NCBI RefSeq assembly: GCF_006345805.1
Contig: NC_042999.1
Coordinates: forward strand, 78,182,001-78,246,000
From: Octopus sinensis
Taxonomy: Eukaryota
Reading direction: 5' to 3'
Length of the DNA: 64,000 bases
The first letter of the stretch is position 1; each line of letters starts with the position of its first letter. Positions 17,082 to 57,940 of this stretch are shown here, in pieces. The translations under genes and the position numbers were made by a program. A model generated the notes under the pieces. That model had not been told where the DNA came from. It did no database searches and saw only the letters and a list, made by a program, of their open reading frames with translations.

Positions 17082-18429
17082 TTGTCTCACACATACTCAC
17101 ACACACACAAATACACATAAATATATATTATTAAGTTTGGATTAGGCAATAATACAAGGAAGAAGATCAAGACATAAGCATAAGATTGACATAAGCAATA
17201 GAGCATAAGTTTTGTATTGGTTACAGTTGTTTCAATTTACAATTCATGGTGTCATAGTGAGTACCTGATCAAAGACTTAGCAATTAGAAATAAGTAGGAG
17301 AAAACTTTTGAAATATAAATTGGAAGCATAAAAAAAAAATAATAAACGTTTTTTTCCTGTCTTAGTTTGGTTTCATTTTGAAAAACAAAAGAAAAATCAT
17401 TTTATGGCTTATTATTGTTTAAATTTTGAATTACATATACATGGTGGCACCAAAATCTTTTAAGTGCTTAGGGCTTTAATGGGTCTTAATCTGAATGTCA
17501 AAAATGGGTATCTTGAGGGTTTGGCAGCAGTTGTTTACAAATGTTCATGTGTTGTTGAGCATGCTCATTGGTCAGTACATGAATAACTTCTTGACAGCGT
17601 CTGTTCACAAGGCCCAGCTCATGGAGTAGTCAAATGATGATGCTTTATGAAGGACCGACTTCTACCAATAATGTATGAGTGCTTGTGCTTGGCTGTTTTT
17701 CAGCTATTTCAAGCCACACCTCATCTTCCTAATCACATGGTTTCGGGGTCAACCCCACTGTGTGGCACCTTGCACAAGTGTCTTCTACTATAGCCCCAGG
17801 CCGACGAAAGCCTTATGAATGGATTTGGTACATGGAAATATAAACCTATACATGTGTATGCGTCTACACACGCACGTGCGTGCATGTGTTTATGTATGGC
17901 CTTGTCAAAGGATTTTACCTTCATTGACGAATGTTAGATATAGGGGCTTACTCCTGCCCTAAGTATTTCTCCAACAGTTGTTTCTCAATAAATATAACAT
18001 CAGGAGTACCACTTCCTGGTACAAAATCAAAATGCATCTCGTCTAGACAACTCTTTCTGTAACTTTCATTACTTGATCCAAGAGTTTGATGCCTTGATAA
18101 ATGCCTGTCTGTATATCATCTGTAGCAGTGATTCAAAACCTAACCGTTAGATACTCGGTCAAATACCATGAGTGAACCACTGTAGTTTCACGAGTTCAGT
18201 CTATAAATCGACCAAGCAGCATGAGGCTGTGGCATGATATGGTTTTCTTGATAGTTCTAGAATAAAACCTCTTGTCCCCTATAAAAACTGTTTTGGCATT
18301 TTAACTTGTGGCAGCTGAGTGACTTGTGACTGGCGCCTCCATTCTTGTCATGCTGGCAGTTCTGGACATTCATGCAGACAATTCCAGTTTCTCGGACAGA
18401 CCCATTCAGAACATTCACACAATATCTCA

Positions 18430-27051: not shown

Positions 27052-27440
27052 AGGCGCAGGAGTGGCTGTGTGGTAAGTAGCTTGCTAACCAACCACATGG
27101 TTCCGGGTTCAGTCCCACTGTGTGGCATCTTGGGCAAGTGTCTTCTGCTATAGCCCCGGGCCGACCAATGCCTTGTGAGTGGATTTGGTAGGCGGAAACT
27201 GAAAGAAGCCTGTCGTATATGTATATGTATATATATGTGTATGTGTGTGTGTTTGTCCCCCTAGCATTGCTTGACAACCGATGGTGTGTTTACGTCCCCG
27301 TCACTTAGCGGTTCGGCAAAAGAGACCGATAGAATAAGTACTGGGCTTACCAAGAATAAGTCCCGGGGTCGATTTGCTCGACTAAAGGCGGTGCTCCAGC
27401 ATGGCCGCAGTCAAATGACTGAAACAAGTAACAGAGTAAC
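27052..27440 (+). mobile_element. tRNA-derived SINE, full length
   Basis: Same family as 5611-5992; A box GTGGCTGTGTGG, B box GGTTCAGTCCC. Confidence 0.85.
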
Positions 27441-44621: not shown

Positions 44622-44680
<59 letters not shown>

Positions 44681-44685
<5 letters not shown>

Positions 44686-45205
44686 TATAAATATACTTAT
44701 AATTAAGGGTACTGAGAACAGCACCAACATGCTAGAAAAAACAGAAGTCAAAATGACTCTAAAACCACATTGTGCACTTCTTTAGCATTGGTGAAAAGCA
44801 AGCACATGATGAGATGGACAATTGGATTGGCCTCATATATACGTGTGAATATATGTATGTATTTGTATGGGTACATATATATATTTTGGTAATATTTCTA
44901 CTGATGGAAGTAGAGTATTTTATTACTAAATCAGAAATTGTTTGATCTAGAGTTAACCACTAAAAATTTGCTAAATCTTTTTTGTTCATTCCCTCACTTT
45001 TCACTAGAGCTAAAAGAGTGTGCGATGTGGTTTTAGTGTCATTTTGACTTCTATTTCTAGCATGTTGATGCTGTTCTCAGTACCCTTAATTATAATTGTA
45101 TTTATATAATTAAATATCTATATTAATTCTTACCTATATGGTTTTTATTACATACTGACCATTGATATGATCATTATTTTTATAATGATTTTATCCTTAT
45201 TTATT
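44681..45205 (+). mobile_element. Solo PLE-like pseudo-LTR with inverted partial copy and degenerate hammerhead
   Basis: ~105-bp inverted arms 44681-44786 / 45009-45111; internal TCTA-CTGATGG..GAAA-TTGTTTG-ATC-TAGA at 44897-44951; located in TA/TG microsatellite. Confidence 0.6.
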
Positions 45206-45227: not shown

Positions 45228-45265
<38 letters not shown>

Positions 45266-45351
45266 TATTCGAGACAAAACCACTATTTTGCAAAACAAAC
45301 AAGGAAAGACTTAATCAATACATAAATTTTAATAAATAGTCAAAAAAACCG

Positions 45352-45394
45352 CCACTACAATCGTTTCTTGTCTTGATCGACAATCTTCAGGTGG
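45352..45394 (-). ncRNA. Minimal type I hammerhead ribozyme in the 3' pLTR (sense to the PLE ORF)
   Basis: CCAC-CTGAAGA-TTGTC(GATCAA)GACAA-GAAA-CGATT-GTA-GTGG: intact core, 5-bp stem II, 4-bp stem I. Confidence 0.8.
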
Positions 45395-45844
45395 ACTTCC
45401 AATCTAAAAAATCAATATTTTAAAAAATAAAATAATAATTTTAAAATAATTAAAGTATGAATGAAAAAATATAAGTATATAATCCATATATAACCTATCT
45501 ATAATCCATATATAATCAATATATAAACAATATATAAACTAAAAAAACCTATCAACAATTAAATATAAAATATAAAATATAAAATATAAAATATAAAATA
45601 TAAAATATAAAACAAAACAAAAAAAAAATAATAATATAATATTAAACTATATATACACCCATACGCATATACCTAATTATATATAACCATATCTAACTAC
45701 ATACACTAAATCACACACCTATATATATATCCCTATACATACACATAAAAATGTCTAGGCAACTATAAATAAATAAAATAGCTAAATACTTCAACACAAT
45801 ACTTATTCATACTCCCACACACACACACATACAACCCACATTCA

Positions 45845-48800
45845 CGCTCTAGAAAATGGACAGCACTCAAAACTATGAACGGAGAAATAGAATAAATGGA
45901 ATTAAAAATTATATTCACTTGGTAAAACGAACACTACTTAAAAATTATGAATGAAACAATGCAATAAAACAACAGACATCGCAAATAGACACAAATTACT
46001 ACAAATTCCTTATCAAACCTACCATGATAACCAAAACTCATAAAAACATATAATGATAAAATTTCCCTTTACTAAACTCTATAACAAACCTATATAGCAA
46101 TCCCCCTAACCTAAACATTCACACACAAATACACACACGTAAACTACACACCCACGACATATACAAATACCCACACCACTTACACATACCAATACATACA
46201 TATAAACCTCAACATATACTCCAAAACCCACTCAACCCCACACAGACAAATAAACACAAAAATTATGAATGGATTCTTTTATAAAACTACCATGATAAGC
46301 TAAAACTCACAAAACAGAAATGATAAAACCTCCCTTTACTAAACACTAAAACATACTTATATAGCAATTCCTTTAACCAATACATTCACACACAAAACCA
46401 CTCGTAAACCACACACCCATAACAAATACAAACTCCCACCCCACTCACACACACCCACAAGTACATATAAGCCTCAACATATACACCAAACAAAATTACT
46501 TTACCAAGGAACTTAACATATATATAAAAAGTATAACCGCTCTGGAAACGAACATCTCTAAATTAATGAATGGAGAAATGGAAGAAATGGAATTAAAAAT
46601 AAAATTCACGTGGCAAAACGAACACCACTCAAAAATTATGAATGAAACAATATAATAAAACAACCAACATCGAAAAAAGACAAATTACTACGAATTCCCT
46701 AAAAAAAAACCATGATAAACCAAAACTCTTAAAAAACATATAACGATAAAATCTCCCTTTGCTAAACTCTATAACAAACCTATATAGTAATCCCCCAAAC
46801 CTAAACATTCACACACAAACACACACGTAAACCACAGACCCACGACTTATACACATACCTAAACTAACTTATAAACCTCCATATACACCAAAACCCACTC
46901 CCTCCCACAGACAAATTAACTCATACATCCCAAAGCCTAAATAACAAACCCATATACACATTCACACACTAACACACACACACGCAAAACACACACACAC
47001 AACAGATACATATACTCCCTCACATATACGCATATACATACTCACTAAACTCAATATATACAACAATATTTACACACCCACACTCATACAGATAAATAAA
47101 TTATACAACTAAAAACTCGCACACAATCTCATATACATAAACACTCCTATGAAAACAACATTAAATACATCTTAATTAACCAGAATATCAAAAATAACAA
47201 TATGACATAAAGGTAAATAAAATACATACTTACAATTCAGTGTCAAATTATGAAGTGAAATTAAATTCTTAGCCGTTAAAAAATCAAACCAAAATTACGT
47301 TACATAGAAATAACTTATGTAAAAAAGACTAACAAACAACTTGCAGTAACCCAATCCCATTCTCTATGCCTACCTCACTACTACACTATTCCATTCACAA
47401 TTCCAAACAACACTAGTCCACCTCCCGGTTATTCACGTGGCAAAACGAACACCACTCAAAAATTATGAATGAAACAATGTAATAAAACAACCAACATCGA
47501 AAATAGACAAATTACCACGAATTCCCTAAAAAAAAAAAAACCATGATAAACCAAAACTCCTAAAAACATATAACGATAAATCTCCCTTTGCTAAACTCTA
47601 TAACAAACCTATATAGCAATCTCCCTAACCTAAACATTCACACACAAATACACACTCGTAAACCACAGACCCACGACTTATACACATACCTATACTAACT
47701 TATAAACCTCAATATACACCAAAACCCACTCCCTCCCACACAGACAATTAACACATACATCCCAAAACCTAAATAACAAACCCATATACACATTCACACA
47801 CAACACACACACACGCAAAACACACCCACAACAGATACATATACTCCCTCACATATACGCATATACATACTCACTAAACTCGATATATACAACAATATTT
47901 ACACACCCACAACTCATACAGATAAATAAATTATACAACTAAAAACTCGCACACAATCTCATATACATAAACACACCTATGAAAACAACATTAAATACAT
48001 CGTAATTAACCAGAATATCAAAAATAACAATATGACATAAGGATAAATAAAATACATACTTACAATTCAGTGTCAAATTATGAAGTGAAATTAAATTCTT
48101 AGCCGTTAAAAAAATCAAACCAAAATTACGTTACCATAGAAATAACTTATGTAAAAAAAGAATACGCGTCATGGAAAGTAAACGTCATTTAAATTATGAA
48201 TGGAGAAATAGAAAAATGGAACTAAAAACTATATCCACGTGGCAAACCAACACTACTTAAAAAATTTATTATGAATGGATTCTTTAAAAAACTACCATGA
48301 AAAATCATTATATACATCTATGAGCTTTAGCTCACCTTAGCAGCTCTAACAAACAACTTGCAGTAACCCAAACCCATTCTCTATGCCTACCTCACTACTA
48401 CACTATTCCATTCACAATTCCAAGCAACGCTAGTCCACCACCCGGTTATTCACGTGGCAAAACGAACACCACTCAAAAATTATGAATGAAACAATGTAAT
48501 AAAACAACCAACATCGAAAATAGACAAATTACCACGAATTCCCTAAAATAACCATGATAAACCAAAACTCATAAAAACATATAACGATAAAATCTCCCTT
48601 TGCTAAACTCTATAACAAACCTATATAGTAATCCCCCTAAACCTAAACATTCACACACAAATACACACTCGTAAACCACAGACCCACGACTTATACACAT
48701 ACCTATCCTAATTTATAAACCTCAATATACACCAAAACCCACTCCCTCCCCACACAGACAAATAACACAAACATCCCAAAACCTAAATAACAAACCCATA

Positions 48801-49470
48801 TACACATTCACACACAAACCCACACACACACAAAAAACACACACACACACAACAGATACATATACTCCCTCACATATACTCATATATATACTCACTAAAC
48901 TCGATATATACAACAAAGTTACACACCCACACTCATACAGATAAATAAAATATACAACTAAAAACTCACACACAATCTCATATACATAAACACTCCTATG
49001 AAAACAACATTAAATACATCGTAATTAACCAGAATATCAAAATAACAATATGACATAAGGATAAATAAAATACATACTACAAGTCAATTTCAAATAATGA
49101 AGTGAAATTAAATTCTTAGCCGTTAAAAAAACCAAACCAAAATTACGTTACCATAAAATAACTTATGTAAAAAAAAGAGAGAATACGCGCCATGGAAAGT
49201 AAACGTCATTTAAATTATGAATGGAGAAATAGAATAAATGGAACTAAAAACTATATCCACGTAGCAAACCAACACTACGTAAAAAAATTTAAAATGAATG
49301 GATTCTTTAACAAACTACCATGAAAAATCATTATATACATTTATGAGCTTTAGCTCACCCTAGCAGCTCTAACAAACAACCTACAGCAACCCAAACCTAT
49401 TCCCGATTCCTACCTCACTACCACACTAATCAATTCCCAATTCCAAGCAACGCTAGTCCACCACCCGGTT
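45845..49470. repeat. Complex tandem array inside the PLE 3' region (three ~0.8-1.0-kb units plus shorter diverged units)
   Basis: ATTCACGTGGCAAAACGAACACCACTC recurs at ~46604, 47431 and 48448; TCCCTTT(A/G)CTAAAC recurs at ~46064, 46332, 46754, 47584 and 48595. Confidence 0.9.
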
Positions 49471-50629
49471 ACAATTCCCAACTCCACCCATTCATTACAA
49501 TTTCAACGACATTCGCCTCCACACCCTACTCTACTTATAAGCCTCAACATATACACCGGAGATACACTTACACATCCGTGCGGATGGGTGATAGTATACA
49601 TTGAGTGTGGTGATGGGGCTCCTATTACTATACACATTTGTACCTGTATGGTAGTCTCCATGTGTATATTACGCACGGGTATAAATGCAGGGGGTACATG
49701 CGCACGTCATTTGCGTGTACCCCTCACATGTACATATGCATGCTATTTGGGCTCGATATATGCAACAATGTAATCGCGCCTGCATACATGCATATGGGCG
49801 AATTGCACAATCAAAAAACGCACACGTGTGTGTGTGCGTTCCCTGGTTGTGCAATTCACCCATCTGGGTGTGAGTGGGTGTAATCTTATCACTGTGGATG
49901 TCGAGCTTAAAACGTATTTATATAAGTGTGTATAAGGGGGTTGTACGTATTAATTGTGTGCATGTGCTTCACGCACTTGCGTCCATATATGGATGAATAT
50001 ATTGGGATTACTATGTGGGTGTAAATTGGGTATAGAGGGGGGAATTTTGTCATTGTATGGGTGTGGGTTTCATTTGTGATAGTGGTTAGTTGGTGATTTT
50101 TAGTATGTACTGTATATTTGGGTTAGTTATGTATTATTCTAGTGTGTATAATTGTATACATATAATTGGTGTGAATGGGATTACGCCCATTTTTGGGGAT
50201 GTATGTGTTTATTTATCCATGTGCGGCGGGAGTGGCCGTTAGGTGTATATACCGAGGCTCACATGCAATTCCAGGTACATCGAATGAAGTGGGCACTTAT
50301 ATTTGTTATGGGTGTGTGTACTTTATTATAACAGACAATGCCCAATAAAATCTGTCAATTCAACATACCAAATAAAAAAAAAACAAAAAAAAAACAAAGG
50401 GATCTTAAACATTCACACATACATACAAAACTCAATAAAAACACCACTAAATAACACCCATAAACATATAAATATATCCTCCAAAATATATACATTAAAA
50501 ATGAACTAATTAAAACAAAGAAATATAAATAAAGACTAACTATAATTAAAGCCTAGACAACATAACCAAAATATATTATCTAAACTAATTTAAACTAAAC
50601 TAAAGTAACCTAAAAGGGAACTATTATTG

Positions 50630-52337
50630 CTATTTATCATGAAACTTATTATATAGGTAAAGTAACTTATGTCTGCATTTTATTTTGCGCTCCTCGCCAG
50701 TATTAAGTAAATTATCATACTTATAAAATAAAATTTCTTTAAACTCATTAGAGCATAAATAACAACAATTAGCTCCTATAGTATATGATTTAGTTTTACA
50801 AATTATTTCCCAAATTAAACTATAATTAATATTTAGTGATTTAAGACTCCAAATGTACTTACTAAGTCCGGTTGAGTTGATTAAGTTTTTATTTTTAAAA
50901 GAATTCATATGTTGTGCGATTCTTAGTTTTATTTTTGAGGAAGTAGAACCTATATAAACCGCTTTTTTGTAATTATTATTCTTAAAGTTATTATCATGTA
51001 ATGTAACTATACATTTATACACTACATCGTTAATATCACAATTATTATTTAATATACAATTAGATTTATCTCTACATGTACAATTAATATAAGTCTTATC
51101 ATTATTAATATTATTATCAAATAATTTCTTTTTATAAAAATTATTCAGTTTATATTTATTAAATGAAGAAATAATGTTACCAACATTATTAGTGGTAGAG
51201 TAACCAACTCCAAAATTATTAAAAGAGAAAATGTTTCTATATTTACGATTATCTCTAATAAATAGTTCTATAACATCTAAAATCTCTTTAATAATATTCG
51301 TTTTTACTTGATCTCCATAAGGAACTATTAACCAAATTTTATTCTTATTAATCTTATTATTATTATCATTATTATAAATATATTTATAATTCTTTATTTT
51401 ATTAAAATTATTATCAGAATTATATCTATGTACAGCATTTAAGGAATTATTAATATTATTAAATTTATCAATATAAATATTATAATAATTATTAAATTTA
51501 TTTTTATTTATATTATTCTTATTTATATTATTATTATTATATTTATTATTATTATTATTATTCTTATTTATATTTTTATCATTTTTATTATTTTTTTAAA
51601 AAAATCTATTATTTTTACCACTAAACCTAACAAAATTATAATTATTATTAGAAGTATCTCGAAAATTAACAATTAAATCTTTATCACTAATATTATAAAA
51701 TTTAATATTCCTATTATAACCTGCCACCCTAAGGGCCTCATTATAATAATTAGCATGTTTATTAAAAATCTCTATATCATAAGAGAGTAATGAAATACGT
51801 TTACTTATATTATTAATCAACGATTTTTTAATAGAAAATGGGTGATTACTATTAACATTTATATATCTAAGGTTCTCATTAAGTTTATGATATGGTTGTG
51901 TTTTACCTGTAATAAGATTAAAATTAACATCTAAATAATTAACATTATAATTCTCCTTATATATAGTAATACTTAAACCATATCTTTTAAAGAAACTATA
52001 TAGTTTTTTCTTATATACTTCAAGATTCCTATTAGTACAATTCTTTGTAACTAGTAGAAGATCGTCTCTATATAAACCACCCTCTAGCTTAGGATTTTCT
52101 AATTGGAGTTCAGATAAAAGAAAAATACCTACTAAATCAGTAGCCTGTGCAGAATCTGGTGCTCCCATAGGTATATCAAAACAATCTCTAGTATCATTCC
52201 TAGCCCATAATTTATTTTTATATTTAATTAGCGATTTCCTAGCCATTTTAATTACATTAACTTCTTCCCGTGACATACCCGCTTTATTCATTGCGAAAAT
52301 AAGCGCTTTATTAAACACAATTTCATTAATAGAAGAA
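50630..52337 (-). pseudogene. PLE reverse transcriptase + GIY-YIG endonuclease, one frame interrupted by a single TAA (51596-51598)
   Basis: FDIPMGAPDSA..DLVG, GLYRDD, VNYLDVNF, SNHP..IKK; then by manual translation KIWLIVPYGDQVKTNI, GYSTTNNVGNIISSFN, CTCRDKSNCILNNNCDINDVVYKC, VYIGST..KLRIAQH, CYLC..E, KCRH. ORFs 51596-52357 and 50630-51022 are in the same frame. Confidence 0.9.
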
Positions 52338-52906
52338 TATTGCATTGTTTCATTCATAATTTTTAAGTAGTGTTCGTTTTACCAAGTGAATATAATTTTT
52401 AATTCCATTTATTCTATTTCTCCGTTCATAGTTTTGAGTGATGTCCATTTTCTAGAGCGTGAATGTGGGTTGTATGTGTGTGTGTGTGTGGGAGTATGAA
52501 TAAGTATTGTGTTGAAGTATTTAGCTATTTTATTTATTTATAGTTGCCTAGACATTTTTATGTGTATGTATAGGGATATATATATAGGTGTGTGATTTAG
52601 TGTATGTAGTTAGATATGGTTATATATAATTAGGTATATGCGTATGGGTGTATATATAGTTTAATATTATATTATTATTATTTTTTTTTTGTTTTGTTTT
52701 ATATTTTATATTTTATATTTTATATTTTATATTTTATATTTAATTGTTGATAGGTTTTTTTAGTTTATATATTGTTTATATATTGATTATATATGGATTA
52801 TAGATAGGTTATATATGGATTATATACTTATATTTTTTCATTCATACTTTAATTATTTTAAAATTATTATTTTATTTTTTAAAATATTGATTTTTAGATT
52901 GGAAGT

Positions 52907-52949
52907 CCACCTGAAGATTGTCGATCAAGACAAGAAACGATTGTAGTGG
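52907..52949 (+). ncRNA. Minimal type I hammerhead ribozyme in the inverted pLTR
   Basis: Identical motif to 45352-45394 on the opposite strand. Confidence 0.8.
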
Positions 52950-53145
52950 CGGTTTTTTTGACTATTTATTAAAATTTATGTATTGATTAAGTCTTTCCTT
53001 GTTTGTTTTGCAAAATAGTGGTTTTGTCTCGAATAATATTTTATAATATTTTACTATAAAATCGATTTAATCCTAAATCTGATTTTTTCCCTGTAAATTT
53101 GGATTTATTCCCTAATATTTATTATATATATATATATATATAATA

Positions 53146-53285
53146 TGAGCTTCTTTCAATTTCCATCTACCAAATTCACTTACAAAGCTTTGGTTGGTCC
53201 TGGGCTATAGTAAAAGACACTTGCCTGAAGTGCTACACAGTGGGTTTGAACCCAGAACCATGTGGCTAGGAAGCAAGCTTCTTCC
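53146..53285 (-). mobile_element. SINE 5' fragment (same family as 5611 and 27052)
   Basis: CTTCTTTCAATTTCCATCTACCAAATTCAC..CTATAGTAAAAGACACTTGCC..AACCATGTGG. Confidence 0.7.
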
Positions 53286-57464: not shown

Positions 57465-57940
57465 AATGGCTGTGTGTTTAAGAGGATTGCTTCCAACCAT
57501 GTGGTCTTGGGCTCAATCCTACTGCAGAGAACCTTAGGCAGGTGTCTTCTACAGTAGCCCTGGGCTGACCAAAGCCTTGTAAGTGTACTTGGTGGTCAGA
57601 AATTGAAAGAGGTTCATTGTATCATCATCATCATCATCATCACCACCACCACCACCACCACCACCACCAGCAGCACCACCAAAACCACCACCACCAAAAC
57701 ATCATCATCATCATCATCATCATCACCACCGTCATCATCATTTAACATCCATTTTCCATATGGGTATAGGTTGTACAGTTTGACTGGAGCTGGCAAGCCA
57801 GAGTGCTGCACCAGGCTCCAATTATCTGTTTTGGCATAGTTTCTATGGCTGGATGCCCTTCTTAATGCCAACCACTTTACAGAATACTAAGTGCTTTTCA
57901 CATGGAAACAACACAGGTATTTTTTATGTGGTACCAGCAC
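57465..57940. mobile_element. SINE head (+) abutting a (CAT/CAC)n microsatellite and an RTE tail (-)
   Basis: SINE head 57465-57612; trinucleotide tract 57621-57740; TTTAACATCCATTTTCC..GGATGCCCTTCTTAATGCCAACC. Confidence 0.65.

Follow-up and report, generated by a model that had tools for sequence, protein, structure and literature searches.

A Penelope-like element of Octopus sinensis with Hydra-clade motifs and a multi-kilobase, repeat-built 3' region

Described Penelope-like elements and the octopus insertion

Penelope-like elements (PLEs) typically measure 4-6 kb (PMC6431247), and researchers have found that one of their clades, Hydra, combines a C-terminal endonuclease (EN) without CCHH with the motifs RWK, DKT, CxCx5C, CxxC and CxH, hammerheads and (TA)n targets, whereas Naiads are defined by an N-terminal EN and the absence of canonical hammerheads, with DKA and CCHH (PMC8557442). 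The supplement of that paper catalogues 27 Hydra families of 1,080-3,045 bp, including Hydra-1_Obim at 2,507 bp, and 31 recently active PLE families with a mean of ~5.4 kb per insertion have been counted, but not described, in O. vulgaris (PMC13282606). The present work concerns an insertion in a 64,000-nucleotide (nt) stretch of the Octopus sinensis genome (NCBI RefSeq assembly GCF_006345805.1, contig NC_042999.1, positions 78,182,001 to 78,246,000 of the forward strand), which is called the window and whose first letter is position 1. We found that this insertion is a minus-strand PLE with Hydra-clade motifs, and that it carries a multi-kilobase non-coding region with a tandem array between its open reading frame (ORF) and its terminal hammerhead. 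The element includes the array and carries it along at many loci; the 3' region as a whole is fixed in the element and has been repeatedly duplicated, inverted and trimmed along the lineage.

Read on the minus strand, the element is 5'-truncated at 52337. What remains of the ORF (1.7 kb) comprises the reverse transcriptase (RT) from the middle of motif A through YRDD at ~52061 to the thumb (51599-52337), an Asn-rich low-complexity linker (51341-51598) as well as the C-terminal GIY-YIG EN region (50630-51340) closed by a TAG at 50630-50632. The 3' region then runs through a single-copy portion (49480-50629), part of which underwent an earlier inversion in the lineage, three units of 1023, 1017 and 827 nt arranged head to tail (46604-49471; 93-95% alike, with a G+U-rich sense strand), an older repeat block with a 265-nt doublet of 82% likeness (45846-46603) and a non-repetitive terminal segment (45256-45845). 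This last segment holds a type I hammerhead motif, read from the sequence, at 45352-45394, and ends in the short terminus class at ~45256-45260, where an unstranded (TA)n target tract (45228-45259) marks the left insertion end. The distance from the stop to the terminus (45256) is 5,374 nt, and a first-pass annotation of the window was exact on the stop, the ~5.4 kb of non-coding sequence and the hammerhead; its statement that the 3' region is three times longer than the remaining ORF is borne out (3.1 times), the figure relative to a whole ORF being ~2.1 times. None of the array units contains a hammerhead, the first one lying 5,242 nt past the stop, beyond every unit.

On the other side of the truncation point, an inverted, 5'-truncated second copy of the 3' end lies on the plus strand (52338-53045, hammerhead from 52907), followed by a plus-strand tail of ~75-80 nt (53046-53125) that represents the long terminus class, ends in (TA)n and equals the first part of the 5' leader, which in whole copies stands between terminus and ATG. 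Both ends of the insertion adjoin (TA)n. The near-identity of the inverted arm, already noticed in the annotation as about 710 bp, amounts to 98.5% over 718 columns (45251-45966 against 53049-52338); between 52338-53045 and 45256-45966 there are 6 mismatches, 4 of them in one A/C run, and 7 gap columns in 713. The break lies inside RT motif A, where it follows the full ORF's codon for the catalytic Asp and shows 2 nt of microhomology, and the arm does include the start of the repeats, as had been claimed (45845-46258 against 46538-46923, 81%). Across its sampled copies, the family shows the general PLE traits of a partial tandem pseudo-long-terminal-repeat (pLTR), an inverted 5'-truncated copy and an optional tail.

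The array as part of the element

The single-copy part, the terminus and the unit each served as an anchor for sampling loci, by taking the top matches by identity among 587, 1,733 and 1,441 candidates, respectively, and an RT DNA anchor gave 805 first-look candidates; none of these figures is a copy number. With the single-copy part as anchor, the array stood between anchor and terminus in 9 of 10 loci, the tenth being the array-less locus on C4 described below. The best 40 terminus matches represented 34 loci besides the window, and all 34 continue into the repeat block; the 33 that were mapped pass the terminal segment, the shortest reaching 725 nt. When the best 40 of the 1,441 unit candidates were scored, the terminus was present in unchanged order at all 19 new loci, none of which had more than four units. 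The annotation had put forward, as a check, a search for ORF, unit and pLTR in this order at other loci; terminus and array were found joined from separate anchors, and the order of parts is constant at dozens of loci on many chromosomes. Among 21 complete 3' regions of the youngest clade, 18 are 5,073-5,546 nt long, one is 4,548 nt and two are ~1,430 nt. Whole units span 7,903-8,047 nt in six natural copies and 4.9-8.0 kb along the lineage, compared with the "generally under 3 kb" of the Hydra description, so that the suspicion of an unusual length was well founded (7.9-8.0 kb against 1.1-3.0 kb for the Hydra families).

These results bear directly on the possibility, named in the annotation among those that would overturn the idea, that a satellite independent of the element, or else a local misassembly, happens to lie beside the ORF. 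Such an origin is hardly credible, because the order of parts is the same at so many places and because the unit-to-unit joint (49471/48450) is present in short-read contigs of two of four runs, from different studies, although one run could be the assembly source. No support for it was found, while lower-identity free arrays may exist beyond the best 40 of the 1,441 candidates. Contig depth was higher over the unit than over the ORF in all four runs, but this depth is not a copy number. A free satellite was also rejected on the grounds that the top unit matches are tied to the terminus in 19 of 19 cases with at most four units, and a non-LTR retrozyme on the grounds that a hammerhead is not found in every unit. 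One locus, C4:121826500-121834760 (L041-L042), consists of two tandem 4.08-kb units that both lack the whole array. The reading of the array as a spliced intron was rejected, since the joint in L041-L042 is a 3-nt overlap and not a GT..AG product, and the exact 32-nt array-less junction has a single occurrence in the genome.

Rearrangement of the 3' region along the lineage

A maximum-likelihood, midpoint-rooted tree was built from the 3' 1.75 kb of the ORF in 69 copies, with L094, L082 and L073 excluded as fragments or chimeras; the length ranges leave out L134 (5.5 kb, not checked for a later insertion) and L067 (0.4 kb, internal deletion), and the 3' ends of about a dozen old copies were not located. 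The tree is ladder-like, and most of its backbone nodes are well supported. The 3' region measures ~0.9-1.1 kb in L070 and L061 (L144 is similar, with an uncertain end), 2.0-2.9 kb in L148, L068 and L140, and 2.1-3.1 kb in L059, L129, L060, L058, L135 and L128. These older 3' regions are AT-rich, with 17-25% GC, and internal repeats are mostly absent from them, whereas past one long branch all lineages have 28-33% GC, G and T skew, internal repeats and lengths of 2.7-5.5 kb.

Several separate rearrangements can be traced beyond this branch. L055 has a 1.4-kb duplication whose junction occurs at three places, and the L112 type has a 1.2-kb duplication whose spacing was counted manually at ~35 places among 40 scored candidates. 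Within the L112 type a 1-kb inversion arose, present in L183/L114 but not in L112/L179-180, and deletions then brought the length down to 3.0-3.6 kb. The joint of one 1.02-kb duplication is common to the window clade, L107-108 and the L117 clade, of which the latter two subsequently lost pieces while the window clade gained a third unit. A clade of five rows was secondarily reduced to 2.9-3.1 kb, with one member re-grown to 3.7 kb, and its near-zero branches indicate that it spread in the shrunken form. Because of such contractions, strictly monotonic growth was rejected. The junction overlaps of the rearrangements are 0-4 nt, and near-identical copies differ in carrying two to four units.

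The annotation had further suggested that the element could transport a large repeat RNA cargo. This wording misleads, as the repeats can be followed back to older 3' sequence of the lineage: L060 1166-1448 matches L057 (61%, 1e-12), and the L055 block matches the window unit (63%, 3e-22). The unit also matches an old TG/TA microsatellite-like tract, though these latter matches may be compositional. We conclude that the repeats descend from the element's own older 3' sequence and therefore are not captured cargo. The description of the element as a young Penelope was supported. Terminal branches in the youngest clade are 0-0.009 long; the 0.021 of the window copy is inflated by arm sequence in the extract. 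At a substitution rate of 0.0036 per My (PMC13282606), this suggests, as a loose estimate, that the insertions of the youngest clade date roughly to the last 1-2 My.

The insertion ends give some indication of how these changes may have come about. We counted 68 short ends, 57 tail ends and 27 that read through into the ORF, the two 3' end classes being ~75 nt apart; flanks are TA-rich at 50 of the 68 short ends and 46 of the 54 scored tail ends, against 42 of 1,892 background 40-mers. All ends lie ~100 or ~175 nt downstream of the predicted hammerhead cut, and hence a simply cleaved linear RNA is not the template. Arms anchored at the terminus have a median length of 2.05 kb, and two of 33 reach the ORF; 18 of the 33 end in a joined inverted copy. 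Any ORF sequence is present in 7 of the 33 loci and absent from 26, so that most insertions would likely be annotated as unknown or tandem repeats. Around the window insertion itself we observed, directly to the left, a separate 455-nt element (44669-45123) resembling a miniature inverted-repeat transposable element, with 130-nt inverted ends of 86% identity, and in the right flank (53123-53283) a dispersed repeat with further copies at 27075-27235, 57480-57617 and 17725-17839.

We propose that an uncleaved or circular transcript of more than unit length would be reverse transcribed, as can be deduced from PMC11167929 and PMC4209133, from two RT start sites just downstream of the hammerhead, which would correspond to the two end classes. 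Priming would occur at nicks in (TA)n on both target strands, with one strand giving the main copy and the other the inverted truncated copy with its tail. Copying would begin at the 3' end, and the region from stop to hammerhead would always be copied first and tolerate any rearrangement, which could be why jumps accumulate and most insertions stop there. Template jumps with overlaps of 0-4 nt, as at the insertion ends, would then also happen within the 3' region and be inherited through source copies. Comparable proposals exist for other elements: template jumps for the N-rich inserts of rotifer Penelopes (PMC3846280) and, for the repeats in the 3' UTR of Ogre, abnormal strand transfer (PMC7004042). 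On balance, we lean towards the view that this young, high-copy Hydra-motif PLE has a 3' region likely rearranged by template jumps of its own RT, and that this region is likely a passenger and not a needed part. The array appears dispensable for jumping, because the shrunken clade spread and the array-less tandem locus exists.

Several observations weigh against this preference. Along the backbone the 3' region grew on balance even though long tails seem costly, with two of 33 anchored arms reaching the ORF, and this would be easier to understand if the repeats help; the branch on which the repeats appear also brought a rise in GC from ~0.20 to 0.28-0.33 and a G-skew about twice as strong, for which jumps alone are insufficient; the array-less form is known from one locus; and no 3' end was measured for the three deepest rows, so that the ancestral length is not fixed. 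A whole open frame was found in none of the 40 ATG-starting copies of the assembly, so present activity is not supported, although indel errors in A/T runs may be the cause of the missing frames. Moreover, RT jumps are indistinguishable from DNA-level recombination in these data. Unequal exchange is expected once repeat units exist, and the variation from two to four units among near-identical copies fits post-insertion changes by slippage, unequal exchange or conversion among thousands of copies, which source elements would then inherit. However, the first duplications and the inversion have overlaps of 0-4 nt like fresh insertion-end joins, and long arrays were not found among the 19 unit-anchored loci, which makes a DNA-level origin improbable in our judgment.

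A further explanation is that the GU-rich repeats were selected, each unit adding a protein-binding, RNA-stabilising or enhancer site so that longer sources win. In its favour, no fewer than three kilobase duplications of separate origin gave rise to source elements or multi-copy forms, length was gained overall despite heavy 5' truncation, one ancestral block was kept and duplicated across lineages, and the shift in composition was abrupt. Set against this, shrunken lineages spread too, L126 lacks most of the retained block, and folding gave no sign of a structured array. The annotation had called the 3' region structured, and this is true of an 861-nt core (49480-50340, z -4.65), the only strongly folding part, whose folding is consistent with its origin by inversion; the array windows are at background. 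Among 200-nt windows, z fell below -2 only in the core and in three scattered windows, while 28 control windows from the flanks averaged -0.54 with outliers to -6. A folded array RNA was therefore rejected, as was a G-quadruplex or telomere-like function: G4Hunter found 5 sites against 5.0 in shuffles, and the six TTAGGG in 5.4 kb arise partly through unit duplication. In one run, which we guessed to be RNA, contigs covered 26 of 30 bins, which is evidence neither for nor against expression. Selection of this kind seems to us rather unlikely, and the specific claim of a multi-kilobase GU-rich repeat RNA domain under selection, in which each unit raises the success of the source copy, should be taken as a tentative one of slightly lower standing. 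If it were correct, the element would be the first endonuclease-bearing (EN+) PLE with a non-coding part twice its ORF acting as an expandable functional module, and the three independent expansions would serve as natural replicates. The explanation that we prefer remains rearrangement of a passenger region by the element's own RT.

Clade placement, hammerhead and comparison with known systems

The first-pass annotation had assigned the element to the Naiads and attributed to these a C-terminal GIY-YIG, which the cited description contradicts, as their EN is N-terminal (PMC8557442). Naiad membership was rejected because in the octopus element the EN follows the RT, a hammerhead is present, the motif is DKT and not DKA, and CCHH is absent. 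Whole copies begin with M-D/E-F-T-G-K and have no N-terminal EN; they contain QSDKTRNLY, the CxCx5C linker reads CTCRDKSNC, CxxC reads CYLC and CxH reads CRH, and the two Cys between the GIY and YIG positions that CCHH requires were not found. KWK stands where the Hydra-clade RWK aligns. Five database relatives with 32-42% identity share the same motifs. A Pfam search of both ORF halves returned nothing meaningful. The element is thus best described as Penelope-like with Hydra-clade hallmarks, a placement that comes from motifs and not from a tree with reference proteins. The RT dN/dS between the window copy and nine older or sister copies was 0.15-0.30, at dS of 0.03-0.54 (9 of the 11 measurable copies); the two closest pairs, with one synonymous change each, were uninformative, and an open frame of 200 codons was lacking in 5 of the 16 copies.

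The ORF of the window copy is interrupted by an in-frame TAA at 51596-51598, at a T/A homopolymer boundary in the linker, which is absent from the earlier annotation. The boundary of this T/A run moves from copy to copy, and the same stop occurs at five places in four loci, with one similar case, among ~30 copies. A family-wide stop between RT and EN was rejected, and the TAA was treated as copy-level or assembly noise; it is shared by a few of the closest copies and may be either a genuine derived allele or noise from polishing. The Asn-rich linker varies in length and is in frame in most copies, and it recalls the N-rich inserts of rotifer Penelopes (PMC3846280). We also noted that gene model P0006, named for Octopus bimaculoides, joins an RT-family fragment (63% identical) to sulfotransferase domains and is probably an annotation chimera, and that a pair of unrelated open frames, with 356 and 321 codons, adjoins a family copy at L052 (G000:C6:47405301-47407952).

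The hammerhead has a CCAC/GTGG stem I, a 4-bp stem II and a self-complementary stem III, with a predicted cut after GUA at 45356/45355, and fits the dimer-type motif (PMC4209133). It was missed by an Rfam search and did not form in single-strand folding (z -0.58), which is what a short palindromic stem III would lead one to expect; a strict hammerhead finder was dropped because it missed known motifs. Its core is kept across 56 copies in 15 variants, most of which retain stem I and III pairing (no shuffle control): stem I changes from CCAC/GTGG to AGAC/GTCT, TAAC/GTTA and AAAC/GTTT, and there are several versions of stem III, all self-complementary. In the older subfamilies L059, L068, L134, L070 and L061, stem II is extended by a hairpin of up to ~70 nt, which is shortened in young ones. 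To judge from this covariation, the hammerhead is a constrained RNA element of the 3' region. Two other hammerhead-like motifs, in the flanks of L147 (~6.3 kb past the stop) and L094, are unlike those of the octopus family and possibly belong to other PLEs or retrozymes.

Among known systems, Naiads share with the octopus element the (TA)n preference and the partial tandem and inverted structure, but none of their distinguishing features matches it (PMC8557442). The Hydra clade shares the C-terminal GIY-YIG without CCHH, DKT, CxCx5C, CxxC and CxH, as well as (TA)n targets and a hammerhead placed ~100 nt before the end; what sets the octopus element apart is the size of 7.9-8.0 kb against at most 3,045 bp in catalogued families, the repeat-built 3' region and the Asn-rich linker (PMC8557442). 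By eye, the protein start and hammerhead of Hydra-1_Obim are unlike those of the octopus element, which indicates a separate family. Poseidon of Anolis (PAc; PMC11167929) is similar in its two 3' end classes, a tail downstream of the hammerhead and AT-rich targets; its start sites lie inside the ORF and its tail is 30-40 nt, whereas the proposed start sites of the octopus element are located in the 5' leader, with ~75 nt between them, at AT-rich motifs running straight into (TA)n. The giant Terminons/Athena PLEs are also large, but through extra ORFs and at telomeres (PMC6431247), while the extra length here is non-coding. Non-LTR retrozymes are PLE-derived tandem arrays with a hammerhead in every unit (bioRxiv 10.64898/2026.07.22.740005), and the octopus units have none. 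The literature searched yielded no account of an EN+ PLE whose tandem 3' region extends over several kilobases; Repbase, Dfam and the PMC13282606 library were outside this search, and a family consensus may be present in any of them.

The element nearly triples the known Hydra-type size range and extends PLE anatomy by a 3' region that is hypervariable and built of repeats. It also provides a natural series of variants, in which 3' regions of 0.9 to 5.5 kb, some of them carrying the inversion and others not, and zero to four units stand beside a near-identical enzyme, which makes the generation of tandem repeats by PLE RT jumps and the roles of the terminal hammerhead and the two start sites testable. 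A parallel lies in an unrelated class of elements, the Ogre/Tat LTR retrotransposons of plants, which carry tandem repeats in their 3' UTR (PMC7004042); some of those arrays have expanded into free satellites, which was not seen among the top matches of the octopus element. By this analogy, the octopus array is best read as a hypervariable passenger region comparable to the 3' UTR arrays of Ogre.

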